A DNA stretch of 32,000 nt, from the NCBI GenBank assembly GCA_048882505.1, contig JBHLRO010000024.1, forward strand, positions 1 to 32,000. The letters are read 5' to 3'. Shown piece after piece: positions 1 through 8,772 of the stretch. Below the pieces are notes generated by a model that worked only from the letters and a program-made list of their open reading frames with translations, did not search any database and was not told where the DNA came from. Both the position numbers and the translations under genes were made by a program. The DNA comes from Candidatus Thorarchaeota archaeon (lineage in GTDB: Archaea > Asgardarchaeota > Heimdallarchaeia > Hodarchaeales > Hodarchaeaceae). Every line of letters starts with the position of its first letter. Position 1 is the stretch's first letter.

Positions 1-1977
1 AACTACACGGACATCCCATTGTGTGAGAGGGGCTATAAGACGGGGTTTACCTATATTGTATACCACTTGAAGCTGGTGGAGAGGATAACTTTCGATTGGT
101 CTGTTCAACGGACGTTTGACCTTGAGGGTGGGGATGGAGCCTTTGACGATCGTGGCTTTATCCTCCCCAGACAGGAGTATCCCCAAAGGGCGGTAATTGA
201 ATACAATATTCGAGGAACTGTCTGCCAGTTTTTGTAGGTGCACATTCCATAAAGTAGTATCAACCAAAGATAATGTTTTTTTGGGATAGCTTTTGGGAGC
301 AAAAAGTGGATAAGGACGACCTTTCGAAGCAATGGTTAGTTTTTGTTCCTGTTCCTCATAAGTAAACTCTACACCTTCTTTGATCGACACATAATCTGAT
401 CGTCCTAGGATTACACTAAAAGGATTATCTGGATGAGGAACAAAGGTTTGCTGCTTATCTAGTCTTGGTACCTGTTCCGGTGGCTGGAATAGATATTCTT
501 TTGCTAAGCTGCTTAGATGGGGATCTATCGTATTCAAATCGTAGGTTATAGAATGTTCATCTGATAACTGACAGATATATTTTCCTTCCTGCGCCATTTC
601 TCTGGAAAGAAACGAGTACTGCGTCTTGCATCGACAAGTCACAGTTTTACTGGTCGTGGGTAGTTCGCTCAGAGGAGTGTAACACCGTACACATCTGGCC
701 TCCGTTGAATGGGGAGGAAATAATGCCACATTTTCAGGGATTCTTGGTGCCCAGAATAGACAGGCAACATACCGAGACGAAATTGGTCGAATTCTTTCCT
801 CATATATCGGAATGACGGGAATTGGTATATCTTCATCTCGAGTGATATGGCTTTTCTTCTCCAAATACTCCAGTTTTTTAAAAAAAACACAATCATACTT
901 CGTGCGTTTTGAGAAATACACACAGCTCTGACAGGTAAACTGCAAGTGATTTGCTTGGTGGACTAGTCGGGAATAATGGGATTTACAAGTGGTAGTAAAG
1001 ACGAGTACTCGACGTTTCCGCGGTGCCTTAAACTTGAGCTTTTGAAAACGTAAATTTTGACGAATATAATTAATGGCATCAAAAGCACTCAACTTGATTG
1101 TATTTAGCTCACGTAGATATGGGTTCCTGTCAAGAAAGGTTTTTTCTCGGCTCGTAAGCGGCCTCTCCATCACCCAAGTAACGGTACGCATGTATTGGGA
1201 GACGCTCACTTTGGTTCCTTGGGCTGCTTCTCGGGCACACTCAAGAATGTCAAGATAGAGAAGACCAGGTTGTGAATCAGGATGGAGTTTAGATTTAGAG
1301 ACCAACCACTGATAGATCGTAATTATAACTTCTGCTAGGAGCACCCCACGTTTCATTTCATGAGGACCAGGAAGAGAAAAGGGTTCCTTTGGGGGATCCC
1401 TCAATGATCTATATTTGGAATATTTCTTTACCATTCTCCCAGCTTGAGTATGCTTATACATGGCCTGAAGTTTCTCATTGATTATTGGTTGAATTTCTTC
1501 AAGTAATGTTGATTTATTCTCACTCCACCCAAAAGCCCGAAATAAAACCTCTTGAAAGAGTCGGAGTTGTCGTGCAGCGAACTCCCGTTTCATTGTGTTA
1601 ATATACCATTCACAGCTCAGGACAACTAAGCGTTGGAAATCAGTATAATTGATTTGTTTACTTGTGAATTTTTCCTCAGTTCGTCTTATTCCTGAGCTTA
1701 CTTGAAGTTTAGCGATATGATTAATGTAATCCGCACAATTCAACCCGTGGGCTCGAAAATATTTTCCAAGTATCGAGGTTTGATAGTACTTTCGTTTTAA
1801 CAGGCCGCTCAAACGCAAGATTTTGACGAGTCGCAGGATTTCTGACGGGAGTTCACCTTGGCATTTCAACAAATCCTTGAGATAAGCTTCGAAAACTGGT
1901 TTGGGTTGAATCTGATACCCTATCTCGAAAATGCCCTGGATCAGACCTTCATCTAGTGAAGGAATGGAATCTTGCAT
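1..1977 (-). CDS. Large multidomain protein, partial (659 codons visible, runs off the left edge); putative highly diverged Cas1-family integrase with Zn-binding clusters
   Basis: Hand translation of the minus strand from ATG 1977 (MQDSIPSLDEGLIQ...) gives no stop down to base 1, which is why the ORF track misses it. Motifs: E168 (TLLEEIQPIINEKLQAMY), RSLRDPPKEPF (190-200), LH232...LYLD243ILE246CAR. This matches the Cas1 R..RPP.DP and LH...L.LD..E..R pattern and spacing. Cys clusters C349/352/363/406 and C429/432/448/450. CDS is solid; the Cas1 call is about 0.55. Confidence 0.85.
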   Translation of the reverse strand, partial: MQDSIPSLDEGLIQGIFEIGYQIQPKPVFEAYLKDLLKCQGELPSEILRLVKILRLSGLLKRKYYQTSILGKYFRAHGLNCADYINHIAKLQVSSGIRRTEEKFTSKQINYTDFQRLVVLSCEWYINTMKREFAARQLRLFQEVLFRAFGWSENKSTLLEEIQPIINEKLQAMYKHTQAGRMVKKYSKYRSLRDPPKEPFSLPGPHEMKRGVLLAEVIITIYQWLVSKSKLHPDSQPGLLYLDILECAREAAQGTKVSVSQYMRTVTWVMERPLTSREKTFLDRNPYLRELNTIKLSAFDAINYIRQNLRFQKLKFKAPRKRRVLVFTTTCKSHYSRLVHQANHLQFTCQSCVYFSKRTKYDCVFFKKLEYLEKKSHITRDEDIPIPVIPIYEERIRPISSRYVACLFWAPRIPENVALFPPHSTEARCVRCYTPLSELPTTSKTVTCRCKTQYSFLSREMAQEGKYICQLSDEHSITYDLNTIDPHLSSLAKEYLFQPPEQVPRLDKQQTFVPHPDNPFSVILGRSDYVSIKEGVEFTYEEQEQKLTIASKGRPYPLFAPKSYPKKTLSLVDTTLWNVHLQKLADSSSNIVFNYRPLGILLSGEDKATIVKGSIPTLKVKRPLNRPIESYPLHQLQVVYNIGKPRLIAPLTQWDVRVV

Positions 1978-2253
1978 AAAAGCCCTCAGATACTCCTGTT
2001 TGAATATAAATCATAAATCCAACGCTTTTTTATTATTTTAAAGTATTATAAAGGGATATATGATTTATTCTATATAGAATTAAATTGCTAAAAAAGGTAT
2101 CTATGAATATTAATAAAAAAGTTTTGGTAGATTTTTCTGCATCAACGTTACAGGAGATCCCTGTCCCACTGTGGATACTATTCAATAGATATAATAATCA
2201 CAGCACGACCAAACTAAGAGGACAATCATTAAATTCTTTGGAAGTAATCAAAG
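1978..2253. promoter_or_regulatory. AT-rich divergent promoter region between the Cas1-like gene and the RAMP operon
   Basis: Very AT-rich with TATA-like runs. Inverted pair ATAAATCATA (2006-2015) / TATGATTTAT (2059-2068) and perfect palindrome ATTCTATATAGAAT (2067-2080). Confidence 0.55.
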
Positions 2254-2709
2254 ATGAATTTAAAGTCCAATAAACCGCATCCCGTAAGCTTTGCATCTAT
2301 GACCTGGCAAGAGCTGGCAGTCAAGCAACTATTAGTCAGGGAAGACATCCCGTTTGTCCAGCAGAAAAAAATCACACTGGGGGGCTGTCATATGATCCTG
2401 GATTTTGAGATTGGCGGAGAAATTCTGCTAGAAGTGTCTGCTACGCGCATGCATCGCCACGGAGTGAGTCTGAAACTGAAAGCACTCCAAATTGAAGCCA
2501 AGTATGCCCGGATCAAAAAGGAACATACCTATCAATTGTGGGTATTGTTTGAATCGAGGCGAAGAGTCCATCGGCGACTCTTCAATACGCTTCAACGTCG
2601 AATGCCTTCTGCTGACCTACTACTTACTTCTCGACGGCAGCTCAGAAAAAGCTTGCGATCGGTATTTCTCGCTGAATATCGACAAAAGGGAGTGCCTCAG
2701 CATGTCTAA
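2254..2709 (+). CDS. PD-(D/E)XK restriction-endonuclease-fold protein (DUF559/Vsr-like)
   Basis: WQELAVKQLL..DIPFVQQKKI..ILDFEIGGEILLEVSA fits the E-helix / D-F / E-V pattern of this fold. Stop overlaps the ATG of the next gene (CATGTCTAA). Confidence 0.65.
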   Translation: MNLKSNKPHPVSFASMTWQELAVKQLLVREDIPFVQQKKITLGGCHMILDFEIGGEILLEVSATRMHRHGVSLKLKALQIEAKYARIKKEHTYQLWVLFESRRRVHRRLFNTLQRRMPSADLLLTSRRQLRKSLRSVFLAEYRQKGVPQHV

Positions 2710-3595
2710 GAAATCAGGTCAAAAGCCGTCTCAGAGAGTCAGGTTTCTGAATGGACCACGAAAGATCTTGAAATTCTGGTGCCATACACCCATTGCCAAA
2801 CCCCTCAATGGAGCGGCCCCGAAAAGCAAGAGTTCATACATGTTGAAACTCGTCCCCGTGTCCTACTCATATGAAGGAAATGCCAAGGTAAATGGAAAAA
2901 CCCAGAAGGTCACTAAAACATCCACTGCGGACAGTTATCTCATTAAAGGCCTACGTGGCGCCCTTCGACACAAAGTGATGGCGTTATGTTATGAAGCAGG
3001 GTTAGACGTCTGCCATACTTCCGATAAGCTGGAAGATAAACATCAAAATTCCCTCATCCCACCAGGGTTCCATCCGTTAGGGGAGTGTGCAACAAATGGC
3101 GAGAGCTGCATCATCCACCAAATCTTTGGCTCCATAAGGCACGCTAGTATTATCTCCGTTTCTGCCCCCCCAATCATCCGTTTCATAGAAAAATCCGCTC
3201 AATTGACGGCAACGGTCCAGCAAGTCCATATGGCCACCGAAAACCGTACGTGTATGAGTTTTGATCAAAGACCTATCCAAGACTTTTCGGAATCATACCT
3301 GAGCGGGACCTTTGCGTTTGAAGTCGATGTGACCTTGTGTACCCCAGAACAACTGGGCTTGCTCATCGAAGCCGGGTATCAATTGGAGAAACTTGGTCGA
3401 GGTTATAACTCGGGGTATGGACATCTTTACGTTCGCAAGTTTCAACTTCACAGAAAAACAAAGAAACGAGTGATTAAGACGGTTAAGGAGGAATTTGTGG
3501 TTCATGAACAGGTGTCAGAAGAACCCCTGAACCATGAGGTACCCCAGGCCTTGGGGGCCTGGGCACAGTATCGGGAGGAGCATAGGTGCAATTAA
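2702..3595 (+). CDS. cas7: Cas7-group RAMP (Csm3/Csf2-like backbone subunit), 297 aa
   Basis: IKGLRGALRH (RAMP s.kGalR motif), C..C..CIIHQIFGS (Zn / +FG motif), C-terminal G-rich loop LEKLGRGYNSGYGHL. Start moved from 2492 to ATG 2702, which overlaps the upstream stop by 8 nt. Confidence 0.8.
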   Translation: MSKKSGQKPSQRVRFLNGPRKILKFWCHTPIAKPLNGAAPKSKSSYMLKLVPVSYSYEGNAKVNGKTQKVTKTSTADSYLIKGLRGALRHKVMALCYEAGLDVCHTSDKLEDKHQNSLIPPGFHPLGECATNGESCIIHQIFGSIRHASIISVSAPPIIRFIEKSAQLTATVQQVHMATENRTCMSFDQRPIQDFSESYLSGTFAFEVDVTLCTPEQLGLLIEAGYQLEKLGRGYNSGYGHLYVRKFQLHRKTKKRVIKTVKEEFVVHEQVSEEPLNHEVPQALGAWAQYREEHRCN

Positions 3596-4407
3596 GTCTT
3601 GAAGGCCAGATCTTGACTCCAATCGTAACGAAGAGAACATTCTTTCATCTCATGGGGTGTCAGTTTCGCATCCTACGGCCTCGGCGACGCTATTACACAA
3701 AAATTACGGTGGGTAAACCCATGTACCCCTACTCCTTCATCTGTTACCTTGGAAGCCTCCAAGTTACGTATTCCTGTAAAACCAAAACTCAGGCGAAACG
3801 GAAACTAATTAGCCTCCTCAAGATCGAATCAATCGGGCGTTTCAGTAGCGAAGGAATGGGAAAGATTCAATGGGAAACGGGGCGAATTCGCCAAAATAGG
3901 TGTTTCTTTCAACGGAAAAGATATTCCAAGATTCGGATACGGCAAGGGCTCCCCCAGTACTTACCCCCGCTCGCGCTCAGATTGATCAGGTACGGATTAC
4001 TTCACGATTTTGTCCATACGTCCAGACATCCCTCCAAAATTTATGTTGAACCTCAAGTCAAGGAGGTAGATCTGTTGCGACGACATCATGACCTCACTGA
4101 TGACCCATTTATTCGACGATTCCAGCAATATGATCGGTTGGCATCTCGAATTACCCGTCGGATCAAGTCTCCTCGCCAAAACCGCTACAATTGGCAGTCT
4201 AACCAGACCCTGGACTTTGAAAAACTCGCGACTGAAATTACAGAGGTAGCCAACAAGTCGGTCTGGAAACTCTACCACTACATCTATGAATCCACGGAAC
4301 TGGCCCAACTCACTGAAAGCCTGCAGTTTGGACATACATCCCTGCGCTACCATCTCCTCCTCATAGCTAATTTGATCGTGCGAGACTTTCAACCTCGCGG
4401 GAGTTGA
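3586..4407 (+). CDS. Cas5-like RAMP fused to an HD nuclease domain (Cas10-type circular permutation)
   Basis: GTG start after GGAGG, 10-nt overlap with cas7. N-terminal LEGQILTPIV and G-loop SIGRFSSEGMGKIQW. C-terminal LLH140D141, H167H168, YD183RLAS, then TSLRYH256LLLIANL. Confidence 0.72.
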   Translation: MQLSLEGQILTPIVTKRTFFHLMGCQFRILRPRRRYYTKITVGKPMYPYSFICYLGSLQVTYSCKTKTQAKRKLISLLKIESIGRFSSEGMGKIQWETGRIRQNRCFFQRKRYSKIRIRQGLPQYLPPLALRLIRYGLLHDFVHTSRHPSKIYVEPQVKEVDLLRRHHDLTDDPFIRRFQQYDRLASRITRRIKSPRQNRYNWQSNQTLDFEKLATEITEVANKSVWKLYHYIYESTELAQLTESLQFGHTSLRYHLLLIANLIVRDFQPRGS

Positions 4408-4410
4408 AAC
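4386..4410 (+). repeat. Single CRISPR-repeat-like palindrome overlapping the Cas5-HD stop codon
   Basis: CTTTCAACCTCGCGGGAGTTGAAAC: TTTCAAC/GTTGAAA arms and a 3' GTTGAAAC end. No exact second copy seen. Confidence 0.35.
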
Positions 4411-4421
4411 CCTTGCACACC

Positions 4422-4495
4422 CCTGTCATAGTGTTCCGTTGGTTTGACGACGAAAGCAGAAGAGCTGGAGTCAAACTGCCCAAGGGCTATGCAGG
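4422..4495 (+). ncRNA. Candidate structured RNA or terminator: long imperfect hairpin in the Cas5-HD / wHTH intergenic gap
   Basis: CCTG(T)CATAG pairs with CTATGCAGG, TCC(G)TTG with CAAGGG, and GTTTGAC with GTCAAAC; about 22 bp in total, read by eye. Confidence 0.4.
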
Positions 4496-4507
4496 TATTA
4501 TCATGAT

Positions 4508-4528
4508 GTCATATACAATTAATATGAC
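4508..4528. promoter_or_regulatory. Palindromic operator-like site upstream of the wHTH gene
   Basis: GTCATAT-acaatta-ATATGAC, perfect 7-bp arms overlapping a TATA-like AT run, 26 bp before ATG 4555. Confidence 0.45.
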
Positions 4529-4554
4529 TCTGATTTTCTTAAGATCCGAGATCA

Positions 4555-4863
4555 ATGGCATCAAATCAACTAGTCCACGACTCGATGGTGACGAAAAGAA
4601 AGGAACGGAGACCGCCCCAACTGCCAGGGGTGCCAGAGAGAGAGAAAAAGGCAATAGTTCATGAGCTGGATCGCAATATTTATGCGATTCTAAGGCGAGA
4701 AGGGCCGTTGACCCGCTCTAATCTGGTATCACTGACAGGGATAGCACGAACAACATTATATGACAGTCTCCTGAGGCTAATTGTGAAAGGCTACGTGACA
4801 CGGTTCTCAGAGGAACGCAAAGAACGTGGGCGTCCGAAAGTCTTCTTTCAAGCAACGGGATAG
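4555..4863 (+). CDS. Winged helix-turn-helix (TrmB-like) DNA-binding protein
   Basis: LDRNIYAILRREGPLTRSNLVSLTGIARTTLYDSLLRLIVKGYV...RGRPKVFF: classic archaeal wHTH with RGRP wing. Confidence 0.85.
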   Translation: MASNQLVHDSMVTKRKERRPPQLPGVPEREKKAIVHELDRNIYAILRREGPLTRSNLVSLTGIARTTLYDSLLRLIVKGYVTRFSEERKERGRPKVFFQATG

Positions 4864-4868
4864 GCGTG

Positions 4869-5033
4869 GTTTAAATCTAACGGCATTTTAAAGTAGTTGC
4901 CGTGGGAAGTCCCTGAATATGACGGGATTTTAAGAATCCGCTTCTGTATTTCACGTTTTTCTCTCTAGAACGGGTTTTTTTCTGTTGTTTTTTATTCGGT
5001 GTTTTGATCCCGAGAATAAAGGGATTATTGAAC
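4869..5033. repeat. Cluster of degenerate direct repeats and small hairpins downstream of the RAMP locus
   Basis: ACGGCATTTTAA (4880), ACGGGATTTTAA (4922), ACGGGTTTTT (4970), AGGGATTATTGAA (5020). Two TCCC-..GAATA..-GGGA hairpins near 4910 and 5008. Confidence 0.35.
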
Positions 5034-5838: not shown

Positions 5839-7380
5839 GTGGTGAAAACCCGTGAATCCATTAAGAAGTCGATTTCAACAATCTTACAGCAGCTTTCTCT
5901 TCGAACCAGCGCCTATCCACCACCTGAACAGAAAAGGTTGGATGAATTACTAGAACTAATCGGTCATTACGAAGAGGCGGACTTTAGTAGAAATAAATTA
6001 GTATTACGGTTTGTTAAATATAGTGAGGGGACTTTTAAAGATGAAGAGTATCTTGGGCTTCCATTCTTATGGTTTAGTGGTACCTACTCTCAAAATGCAA
6101 AAGTGTTACTAGAACATTCCAAGTTTCATGCAATATCGTTCTATGAATTCTTAGCAAAGCATTTGCGGGGGATATTTCGTCTAGTAAACCGTTTAGAACC
6201 CTTATCTTCGATTTTATGGGAAGATTTACAATACGAAGCCAATAAATTACTCCAATATCTAACGAAAAGAGATATAGAGACTTTAAAGGTGGAATTTCGA
6301 CTTTTAAAAGAAAAAGGAGTAATTACACTAAATACACGCCAGCAAAGAGAATATATTGGGGAATATATCGAGTTTTTCAAGGACGAGACACCTTTTGTTG
6401 AGCTGAAACGTTTATTTTCTGTCGTAAACGGAAAATGGATGCTCCAATTCTTCTCCCCTGCTTTTGATCTAAGTCGTGTACTATTTCAATTCAAGATTCT
6501 CGATTCAATTCCTTTGAGTGATATAATAGACTTTTCAAATCGTAAAAACTCCACATTGACTATAAGCGATATCTACAACACGCGCGAAGATCCAAACCGA
6601 TATCTAGGATTTTTCTTTGTTCCAATTAATTGTGTTTCTGACCTTAAGACATATCTTCAGAAAATTCAGAAGAGTGGGCATATAATACTGGAAAAATATT
6701 CTTCAGTAACCGATGTTCGGAAGAATATTTCGCTACGACTTTATCAACCAGGAAGAGGCTGGCAAAACACCAGTACAACTTACCTATCTAAGTTAAAACG
6801 AATTATATTATCAATTGGACCTGACGAGCTAGAACAACAACCAAGTAGTTATCAAGATGACCTTTATATCCCTAATGCAATGAACAAAAGATGGAGCTAT
6901 CGTGATCATCCTCTTCCTCATCGATTGATAAAGTTGGTCTGTAAAATGGCAAAGGAGTTCTCCTTCATGGATTTTCCCATTGACTCTGATAGGTTAAATA
7001 AGCCGAACTCTCTCAGTATCGATCAGATCGGGCTCCTGAAACAATTATATTACAACAAAGTTGTGTATCCAGTTTTTATACCTTGGCAAATTATCGATGA
7101 ATTCTCGCTAGACAATTTCTGTGTATATATCCAGAAAATCCCATTTTCTAAGCTGGTAGAATTAATAAAAATTATCCCATTCAGTGAAGTATTTTCCACC
7201 GAAGAGTTTTTCTGCTTGTTTGGTAGATTAACACCACGACTAGTTAATTGGATTCGCTCAGATTTAGGTTGGAATGTCTATATGATCAGTAGAACACATA
7301 AAAAAGCTGCGCAGTTAAATTTTGCCTGGTTTAACAAAAGATCATTGACATGGGCGGTTCCAGAAGTTCTGGAATCTTAA
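5839..7380 (+). CDS. Hypothetical protein (513 aa), possibly with duplicated wHTH plus ferredoxin-like (Lrp/AsnC-like) halves
   Basis: Long ORF, GTG start within GAGGTG. The fold guess is weak and comes from two similar hydrophobic strand patterns (FFSPAFDLSRVLFQFKI; VFIPWQIIDEFSLDNFCVYI). Confidence 0.8.
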   Translation: MVKTRESIKKSISTILQQLSLRTSAYPPPEQKRLDELLELIGHYEEADFSRNKLVLRFVKYSEGTFKDEEYLGLPFLWFSGTYSQNAKVLLEHSKFHAISFYEFLAKHLRGIFRLVNRLEPLSSILWEDLQYEANKLLQYLTKRDIETLKVEFRLLKEKGVITLNTRQQREYIGEYIEFFKDETPFVELKRLFSVVNGKWMLQFFSPAFDLSRVLFQFKILDSIPLSDIIDFSNRKNSTLTISDIYNTREDPNRYLGFFFVPINCVSDLKTYLQKIQKSGHIILEKYSSVTDVRKNISLRLYQPGRGWQNTSTTYLSKLKRIILSIGPDELEQQPSSYQDDLYIPNAMNKRWSYRDHPLPHRLIKLVCKMAKEFSFMDFPIDSDRLNKPNSLSIDQIGLLKQLYYNKVVYPVFIPWQIIDEFSLDNFCVYIQKIPFSKLVELIKIIPFSEVFSTEEFFCLFGRLTPRLVNWIRSDLGWNVYMISRTHKKAAQLNFAWFNKRSLTWAVPEVLES

Positions 7381-8415: not shown

Positions 8416-8772
8416 ATGACTGTTGTTCTGAGAAACATGGCGTCCATAATTGCAAAGTGGCAGAAATGTGGTAAATCTACGTGCCGCTGCAAATCGGGGG
8501 CACTGCACGGGCCCTACTTTTGGTTAATCACGTACGTGTCTAGGAAAGCAGAACATCCGCAAAAGGGGCGGTACAGCTGGAAGTACCTGGGCAAACATCC
8601 TGAAACCGCGTGGATCCGACTTAAAGAAATCGATGAGCGTTTCGATCAACAATATGATCTACAGGATCTAAAGAACAAAATAACGGATATGATACAGATC
8701 CGAAAAGTTCAAAGAGACATTTCGGTTACTGAACCGGTTTTGGTTGTGGATGAACCTGGTTTGAACCATTGA
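8416..8772 (+). CDS. DUF6788-like small Zn-binding protein
   Basis: KCGKSTCRCKSGALHGPYFWL and YLGK are the hallmark motifs of this family. Confidence 0.75.
   Translation: MTVVLRNMASIIAKWQKCGKSTCRCKSGALHGPYFWLITYVSRKAEHPQKGRYSWKYLGKHPETAWIRLKEIDERFDQQYDLQDLKNKITDMIQIRKVQRDISVTEPVLVVDEPGLNH

Follow-up and report, generated by a model that had tools for sequence, protein, structure and literature searches.

Gene organization of the locus

The window, 32,000 nucleotides long, opens a contig from an Asgard archaeon, and the closest named loci come from Hodarchaeota and Heimdallarchaeota records. Its left part carries the following genes (coordinates are those of the window).

1-1977, minus strand: aCas1, the large Asgard Cas1; N-terminal two thirds, truncated by the contig end
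2254-2709, plus strand: small gene (151 aa) that travels with the element; homologues lie at the same place in related loci
2702-3595, plus strand: Cas7-like RAMP, with a weak match to Pfam RAMPs (E 0.015)
3586-4407, plus strand: fusion of a Cas5-like RAMP with a Cas10-type HD nuclease domain (Cas5-HD, 273 aa), from model matches
4555-4863, plus strand: host winged-helix gene outside the element, from the contexts of its homologues

The product of 1-1977 can be aligned with full-length relatives of 950-1440 aa. Its Cas1 fold is deduced from a model of the C-terminal domain of a relative, which matched Cas1 and casposase structures (E about 1e-6); in the window, that part lies off the contig. 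The match came from a fold search, and a sequence search of the PDB with the aCas1 profile gave none. The end of contig C82 carries a C-terminal piece of an aCas1-type gene, which presumably continues the gene at 1-1977. A second aCas1 gene (L076:4348-10696; G000 C16:26.3-32.7 kb) is paired with a 1104-aa protein, the start of which resembles the 151-aa product; this sister element has other cargo, with no RAMP genes and no RNA match.

The 151-aa product has no match in Pfam or NCBIfam, and its motif suggests a PD-(D/E)xK-like nuclease. In alignments of the Cas7-like protein, a Cys/His pattern and a glycine loop are invariant, and there is no conserved Asp after the first strand, the position of the catalytic residue in Csm3. 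The Cas5-HD model resembles type III/IV RAMPs over residues 1-110 (Z 8.6, rmsd 3.4, 108 aligned) and the N-terminus of Csm1, which bears the HD domain, over residues 127-273 (6mua; Z 5.8, rmsd 4.1, 131 aligned). H140, D141, H168, D183, H250 and H256 are invariant in nine sequences. Viral contigs contained no relatives of Cas7 or Cas5-HD.

The gene set from 1 to 4407 is an ARAMP (Asgard RAMP) arrangement. It combines Cas7-like and Cas5-like RAMPs that have nuclease domains and type III-like folds with a distinct large Cas1 that adjoins the RAMP genes, and it lies in an Asgard host with no array within the window. ARAMP systems (Makarova et al. 2020 CRISPR J) have been described in reviews as array-less, enigmatic CRISPR derivatives (PMC8730458; PMC12669027). 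Farther to the right, 5839-7380 (plus strand) encodes a protein of 513 aa that matches no family and has three paralogues in the genome; its neighbours are a DUF6788 gene (8416-8772) and genes for Cdc6 and the PolD small subunit.

A structured RNA at the 3' end of the Cas5-HD gene

When DNA 3' of Cas5-HD genes was collected from genomes and metagenomes, a conserved RNA was found to follow the end of the gene in nearly all close relatives (28 aligned sequences; 51 distinct copies). A covariance model detects it in 17 of the 22 genomes of the genus, each with one to seven copies. In the window, it comprises the following parts.

4378-4542, plus strand: structured right-end RNA of about 165 nt, from covariation and model matches
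4378-4418, plus strand: helix P1 (4378-4384 with 4412-4418), enclosing hairpin H1 (4387-4409)
4427-4491, plus strand: helix P2 (4427-4437 with 4484-4491), which includes the 3' half of a formerly proposed spacer
4442-4476, plus strand: kink-turn hairpin, from stem pairing counts
4492-4534, plus strand: P4, a variable, AT-rich hairpin region (relatives: about 5-45 nt)
4537-4542, plus strand: pseudoknot strand TCTT and AA; TCTT pairs with loop bases 4460-4463

The 5' boundary, provisionally placed at 4378, lies inside the last Cas5-HD codons. Of 27 sequences, 26-27 keep the four core pairs of P1, and one change is compensatory; the 5' strand of P1 is also constrained by codons, and its 3' strand was located by motif. 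In P2, 83% of cells are paired, and three of eight pairs change on both sides. The kink-turn hairpin consists of an outer stem, a 3-nt bulge, tandem GA, a 3-bp inner stem and a loop (4458-4463). Its outer stem is paired in 84% of cells as against 34-50% in shifted registers, and its inner stem in 83 of 84 with many two-sided changes. The 3' GA of the tandem is invariant, and the 5' one is GA in 21 of 28 sequences and GU in 7 of 28. This agreement with the K-turn consensus suggests that L7Ae may bind here. P4 contains a TATA-like run at 4518-4525.

In a structure-blind alignment of 12 sequences, 91.6% of cells pair and 15 of the 27 pairs show two-sided change; in slid registers of the same alignment, 37-52% of cells pair. 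Because relatedness inflates a shuffle control, the slid control and the tree described below weigh more. RNAalifold recovered the inner stem alone from the raw alignment because the gap sits in different registers, and pairing was counted instead on anchored positions and on a gap-consistent subset. Across 16 loci, no Rfam covariance model, those of box C/D, H/ACA, SECIS and ribozymes included, matched the RNA at E values up to 5. Two known classes were considered and rejected: the RNA has neither the pocket nor the ACA box of an H/ACA RNA, and a SECIS, suggested by the AUGA..GA core of the RNA, does not fit an inner stem of 3-4 bp and alignments that lack a conserved in-frame TGA. The helix II of a SECIS is far longer than 3-4 bp. 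The RNA is thus absent from Rfam, as it is from the literature searched, to which the 2020 description of ARAMP may add. Among sequencing runs, too, no holder of the RNA was listed, which has no bearing on whether it is expressed.

The same DNA had been read in the original prediction as a one-spacer CRISPR mini-array, in which cleavage by Cas6 would leave a handle of 8 nt, starting at 4403, and a fixed guide of 31 nt. The three segments of that reading, a 25-mer (4386-4410), a 31-mer and a 35-nt second unit, are present as written. The 25-mer, said to be partly coding, forms a true 7-bp hairpin that spans the Cas5-HD stop codon (4405-4407). It was also described as a lone copy, and a strict repeat-like pattern, tailored to the 25-mer itself, occurs just once in the 4.3-Mb genome. 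Its repeat-like ends, this uniqueness and a lone Cas6-like gene on contig C60 speak for an array. Repeat-like ends alone, however, carry little weight because looser TTTCAA..TTGAAA palindromes occur 17 times in the genome; GTTGAAAC occurs 239 times. The Cas6-like gene (G000 C60:1-789) stands amid metabolic genes with no array nearby. No further 25-mer (up to 5 mismatches), 31-mer (up to 8) or second unit (up to 9) was found in the assembly, nor was an array with such a repeat or of any kind (the genome is 94.6% complete, and arrays often stay unassembled). The second unit resembles the first in its last 11 nt or so, with a gap, but the ungapped identity is 7/25.

The palindrome was expected to be kept at orthologous loci while the 31-mer varied, and the reverse holds in 26 relatives. 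Hairpin H1, which is the supposed first repeat, has a stem that forms in 24 of the 26 with unrelated sequences: the identity of the 25-mer is 6-12/25, and GTTGAAA stands at the hairpin in one relative. The 31-mer is conserved at either end, where it contributes to helices: it begins with the 3' strand of P1 and closes with the 5' strand of P2 and a near-invariant CCGTT; a short linker alone varies freely. No target of the 31-mer was found in the host genome, and a 21-mer taken from it has no exact match among the viral contigs of IMG/VR. With the repeat unconserved, the units unlike each other, the supposed spacer a paired part of the scaffold and no target found, the mini-array reading appears largely refuted by the comparative data and is now barely credible. 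As to the accompanying caveat that the motif could be chance, it is covariation across relatives, and not the energy of the single sequence (z = -2.05), that lifts the fold above chance. Two other stretches of the window, 4869-4893 and 4911-4935, are 16/25 like the 25-mer and lie beyond the presumed end of the element.

Instead, 4378-4542 is predicted to be a single structured RNA, of which the segments of the former reading make up the 5' half. The proposal of a guide locus at the effector stop codon survives insofar as a non-coding RNA lies there, which likely serves the RAMP effector, but the guide is not in the 31-mer. A homing-type guide, as suggested before, would still be the leading idea, with the candidate guide presumably about 130 nt farther along, after 4542.

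The terminal pseudoknot

In 25 of 28 copies, the last four loop bases of the kink-turn hairpin are exactly complementary to four bases at the conserved 3' motif. The pairs are AAGG/CCTT in most copies, TAGG/CCTA in one clade, AAGA/TCTT in the window copy and one other, and AAAG/CTTT in one. Copies found later fit the pairing rule, and one of them, within the TAGG clade, has gone back to AAGG/CCTT. When the 3' motif was sought blind to the loop, the complementarity was perfect in 34 of 50 copies; among unusual loops, 7 of 17 are perfect as against 1.1 expected by permutation (kin are not independent). On a tree built without the pseudoknot columns, paired changes fall on about five separate branches, the branch of the window copy being long and its placement unsure. 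Because the window copy has its own compensatory pair, it seems to be still under selection.

The right end of the element

The RNA marks the right end of a mobile element mobilised by aCas1. Empty alleles at eight or more host sites place the end of the element within about 10 nt of the pseudoknot. For one full element, three close genomes lack the insertion, and their homology begins exactly after CCTTAA. A second element is a 15-kb insertion that ends 10 nt past the pseudoknot strand, and at six or more other sites the junction implied by the empty alleles is at about -7 to +10 nt. The flank of one copy (L044), seemingly different, proved to be the same site as that of a copy in the genome studied here, plus a later insertion. 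In other ARAMP clades, too, paralogues of the same genome lose their likeness where their downstream RNA ends. Two such clades (L205-L224) have different conserved RNAs 3' of Cas5-HD, in which kink-turn-like motifs can be seen by eye; many end in a GGTGATA-like motif, sometimes followed by the host start codon, and some have a second RNA copy upstream.

At the full element, 23 of the 28 bases after CCTTAA recur at the left junction on another contig. This 28-bp direct repeat spans two contigs, the adjacency of which is deduced from the empty allele, and in this one case it looks as would be expected of a Cas1-type target duplication. The target duplications of casposons are 14 and 35 bp (PMC4779613). 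No target duplication was found for the window copy, whose left end is off the contig, or for 19 others. Nor did any terminal inverted repeats exceed chance, the true left ends being mostly missing. A candidate on contig C2 lay inside an intact ABC-ATPase gene and was rejected as chance.

Six or seven more RNA copies exist in this genome (G000 C2:70760, 84729, 93281, about 97950, 384416 and 388800; C27:18247-18331), mostly with a truncated 3' piece of Cas5-HD. Those on C2 cluster in two regions, and retention of the right end with loss of the left side is the rule. The RNAs of a Borrarchaeum record (L003) and a Sifarchaeum record (L049) are near-identical, lie at different sites and are nested among Hodarchaeales copies, which makes horizontal spread likely (no rooted test).

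Host flanks and possible promoter capture

The flank of the window copy has the following candidate feature.

4543-4572, plus strand: host flank, candidate guide of undefined length, proposed by analogy with omega RNA

Elsewhere in the genome, this stretch has no match better than chance (17/20, 21/28). Homologues of the winged-helix gene occur in 20 of 21 other genomes of the genus; in none of the fetched loci do ARAMP genes come closer than 1.5 kb, and the homologues mostly carry a TATA and a ribosome site of their own. Because winged-helix is a host gene, the junction is placed at 4542/4543, 12 nt before its start codon, and 4537-4542 would be both the scaffold end and the right end of the element in this copy.

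A start codon lies within 15 nt of the RNA end in 11 of 50 copies as against 5.9% of control positions. Other copies adjoin the 5' end of RNase P RNA (five genomes) or the L7Ae leader (two genomes), ending about 3 nt before it (L159-L164, L143, L155), and at these sites the element end replaces the host promoter. At the RNase P sites, the TATA-like run of P4 is 22-23 nt from the RNA start, as in the empty alleles, and one genome has kept only P4 and the RNA end before RNase P. In other copies as well, such a run in P4 is often at the distance of a promoter. These positions suggest capture of promoters, or else integration directed at the sites where transcription begins. Such capture can account for right ends that survive the loss of the genes; the conserved core stays unexplained by it. 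A kink-turn hairpin is conserved in the L7Ae 5' leader across the genus (L138-L157), with a long insert in four genomes, which fits the known autoregulation of L7Ae. In addition, three different element copies end beside a small box C/D-like RNA, which is encoded on the minus strand and situated downstream of a Pop5-like gene (L034:8941-9005; G000 C15 near 20850).

The adjacency to host gene starts, RNase P RNA and the L7Ae leader, the promoter distance of the TATA-like run and the genome with P4 and the end only are also what a cis-acting 3'-UTR element would predict. Such a regulatory or processing element, bound by L7Ae and possibly self-cleaving, would set the end of the element transcript and free the downstream host transcript, the TATA of P4 serving as an outward promoter. 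A promoter role, however, requires P4 only and leaves P1, P2, the kink-turn and the pseudoknot unexplained; no Rfam ribozyme or leader matched, the RAMP proteins would be left without an RNA, and the surviving insertions are a selected sample, several of them orthologous. This explanation is on balance unlikely.

P4 bears on another possibility, in which the RNA is a scaffold and the variable P4 loop is the guide. P4 is a loop between conserved parts, it differs in two near-identical copies of one genome, and an internal hypervariable guide has been proposed for aCas1-TnpB elements (PMC10691335). P4 is not an obligatory guide because it is nearly absent in several intact elements: in several copies it shrinks to about 5-7 nt, and two of these copies belong to full elements with aCas1. 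Moreover, it is nearly identical in two copies that lie at separate sites in different classes, and it is unlike the empty L7Ae promoter. A guide in P4 is accordingly quite improbable.

A possible flank-guided right-end RNA

Whatever its role, the RNA is a conserved structure, linked to Cas5-HD and placed at the element end. It probably acts as a scaffold that binds Cas7 and Cas5-HD, standing in for a processed CRISPR repeat and for the missing large subunit. Transcription would continue past the element end into host DNA, so that the bases from 4543 on would become the guide. That the flank after the pseudoknot is the guide is conceivable, at rather less than an even chance, because the layout matches the logic of TnpB omega RNA. 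Guided in this way, the complex would recognise the site that lacks the element and cut it with its HD domain, which would favour retention or re-insertion of the element; this whole chain, from guide through recognition and HD cut to retention or re-insertion, deserves the same guarded credence. In favour of it, the HD residues are invariant and related Asgard Cas1 elements carry TnpB (PMC10691335).

Several points count against flank guidance. The 28-bp duplication would leave the target of the guide at the left junction and create a self-targeting problem, which IS605 elements do not have; in the one duplication case, the left copy is the more diverged of the two. There is no Cas8 or Cas10 large subunit for opening DNA or reading a flanking motif, and no conserved target-adjacent motif could be derived from the flanks. 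With type III-like proteins, one would expect the target to be single-stranded. Many copies of the RNA have outlasted intact genes, although promoter capture could account for them.

Some of these difficulties disappear if the RNA binds the RAMP-HD proteins, has no guide and holds the HD nuclease inactive as an antitoxin, in an addiction or abortive-infection device of the element comparable to type III toxin-antitoxin systems with their pseudoknotted RNA antitoxins. A pseudoknot and an intact nuclease lie within one operon, there is no self-targeting problem, a large subunit is unnecessary, and cassettes of Cas7, Cas5-HD and the RNA alone exist. However, a Cas7 backbone protein suggests a single-stranded guide stretch, and no such stretch of the scaffold exceeds about 9 nt; the element junction need not be the end of an antitoxin; and type III antitoxins are tandem repeats that lie upstream of the toxin. 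An antitoxin is hence an unlikely explanation. The explanation by a flank-guided right-end RNA, taken as a whole, is held tentatively, at somewhat below an even chance.

Implications

ARAMP stands in current CRISPR classifications as array-less and mechanistically unexplained. The genes are a known family; the conserved right-end RNA is new, as far as Rfam and the literature searched extend. The RNA structure, its mapped 3' boundary and the predicted guide position make the ARAMP question testable in a system that needs one RNA of 165 nt and two small proteins. Should the flank prove to be the guide, guidance by transposon-end RNA would have evolved with RAMP proteins besides TnpB and IscB. 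One array-free mobile element would then unite a Cas1 integrase, a RAMP effector and a guide RNA, as a living model (or derived mimic) of one step in the origin of class 1 CRISPR, and it would offer a very small reprogrammable class 1 effector.

Comparison with known systems

Tn7-like CASTs use CRISPR mini-arrays and delocalised guides. A homing role of the guide may be shared with them, but no repeat, spacer or Tn7 genes are present here. Casposons (PMC4779613) share the Cas1-fold integrase and a similar duplication size (28 bp here, in one case), whereas the present element has no terminal inverted repeats that could be found and carries RAMP genes and a right-end RNA.

With ARAMP, the locus shares the Asgard host, the lack of an array, Cas7 and Cas5 homologues with nucleases, the distinct Cas1 and type III-like folds. 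An RNA partner, an element end and a target duplication do not figure in what the reviews say of ARAMP (PMC8730458, PMC12669027), and the original description may say more. The aCas1-TnpB elements (Cas1H-Asgard-1/-2; PMC10691335) likewise have an Asgard Cas1 as the likely transposase and an RNA region downstream of the effector gene. Their effector, however, is TnpB, and the guide proposed for them is a hypervariable internal stretch that precedes a GTTCACTCA motif; in the present RNA, the junction is not followed by this motif.

In layout, the RNA resembles the TnpB omega RNA or reRNA of ISDra2 and other IS200/IS605 elements. The omega RNA overlaps the end of the effector gene and the right end, with a pseudoknot at -6 to -2 before the guide (PMC10097598). 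In both systems, one long RNA extends over the effector 3' end and the right end, the latter junction being observed in relatives and extrapolated to the window copy, and a pseudoknot occupies the last few scaffold bases with the flank directly after it. The systems differ in that the effector here consists of RAMP proteins with an HD domain and not of a RuvC protein, Cas1 takes the place of a Y1 or serine enzyme as the mobiliser, the RNA contains a kink-turn, one case of target duplication was observed and the guide role is putative. Because no RuvC effector (TnpB, IscB or IsrB) lies upstream, the locus is not a member of OMEGA, and the claim is that it works like one. It is possible, if rather doubtful, that it is a class 1 counterpart of OMEGA, a Cas1-mobilised transposon whose right-end RNA would program Cas7 and Cas5-HD with a flank guide.
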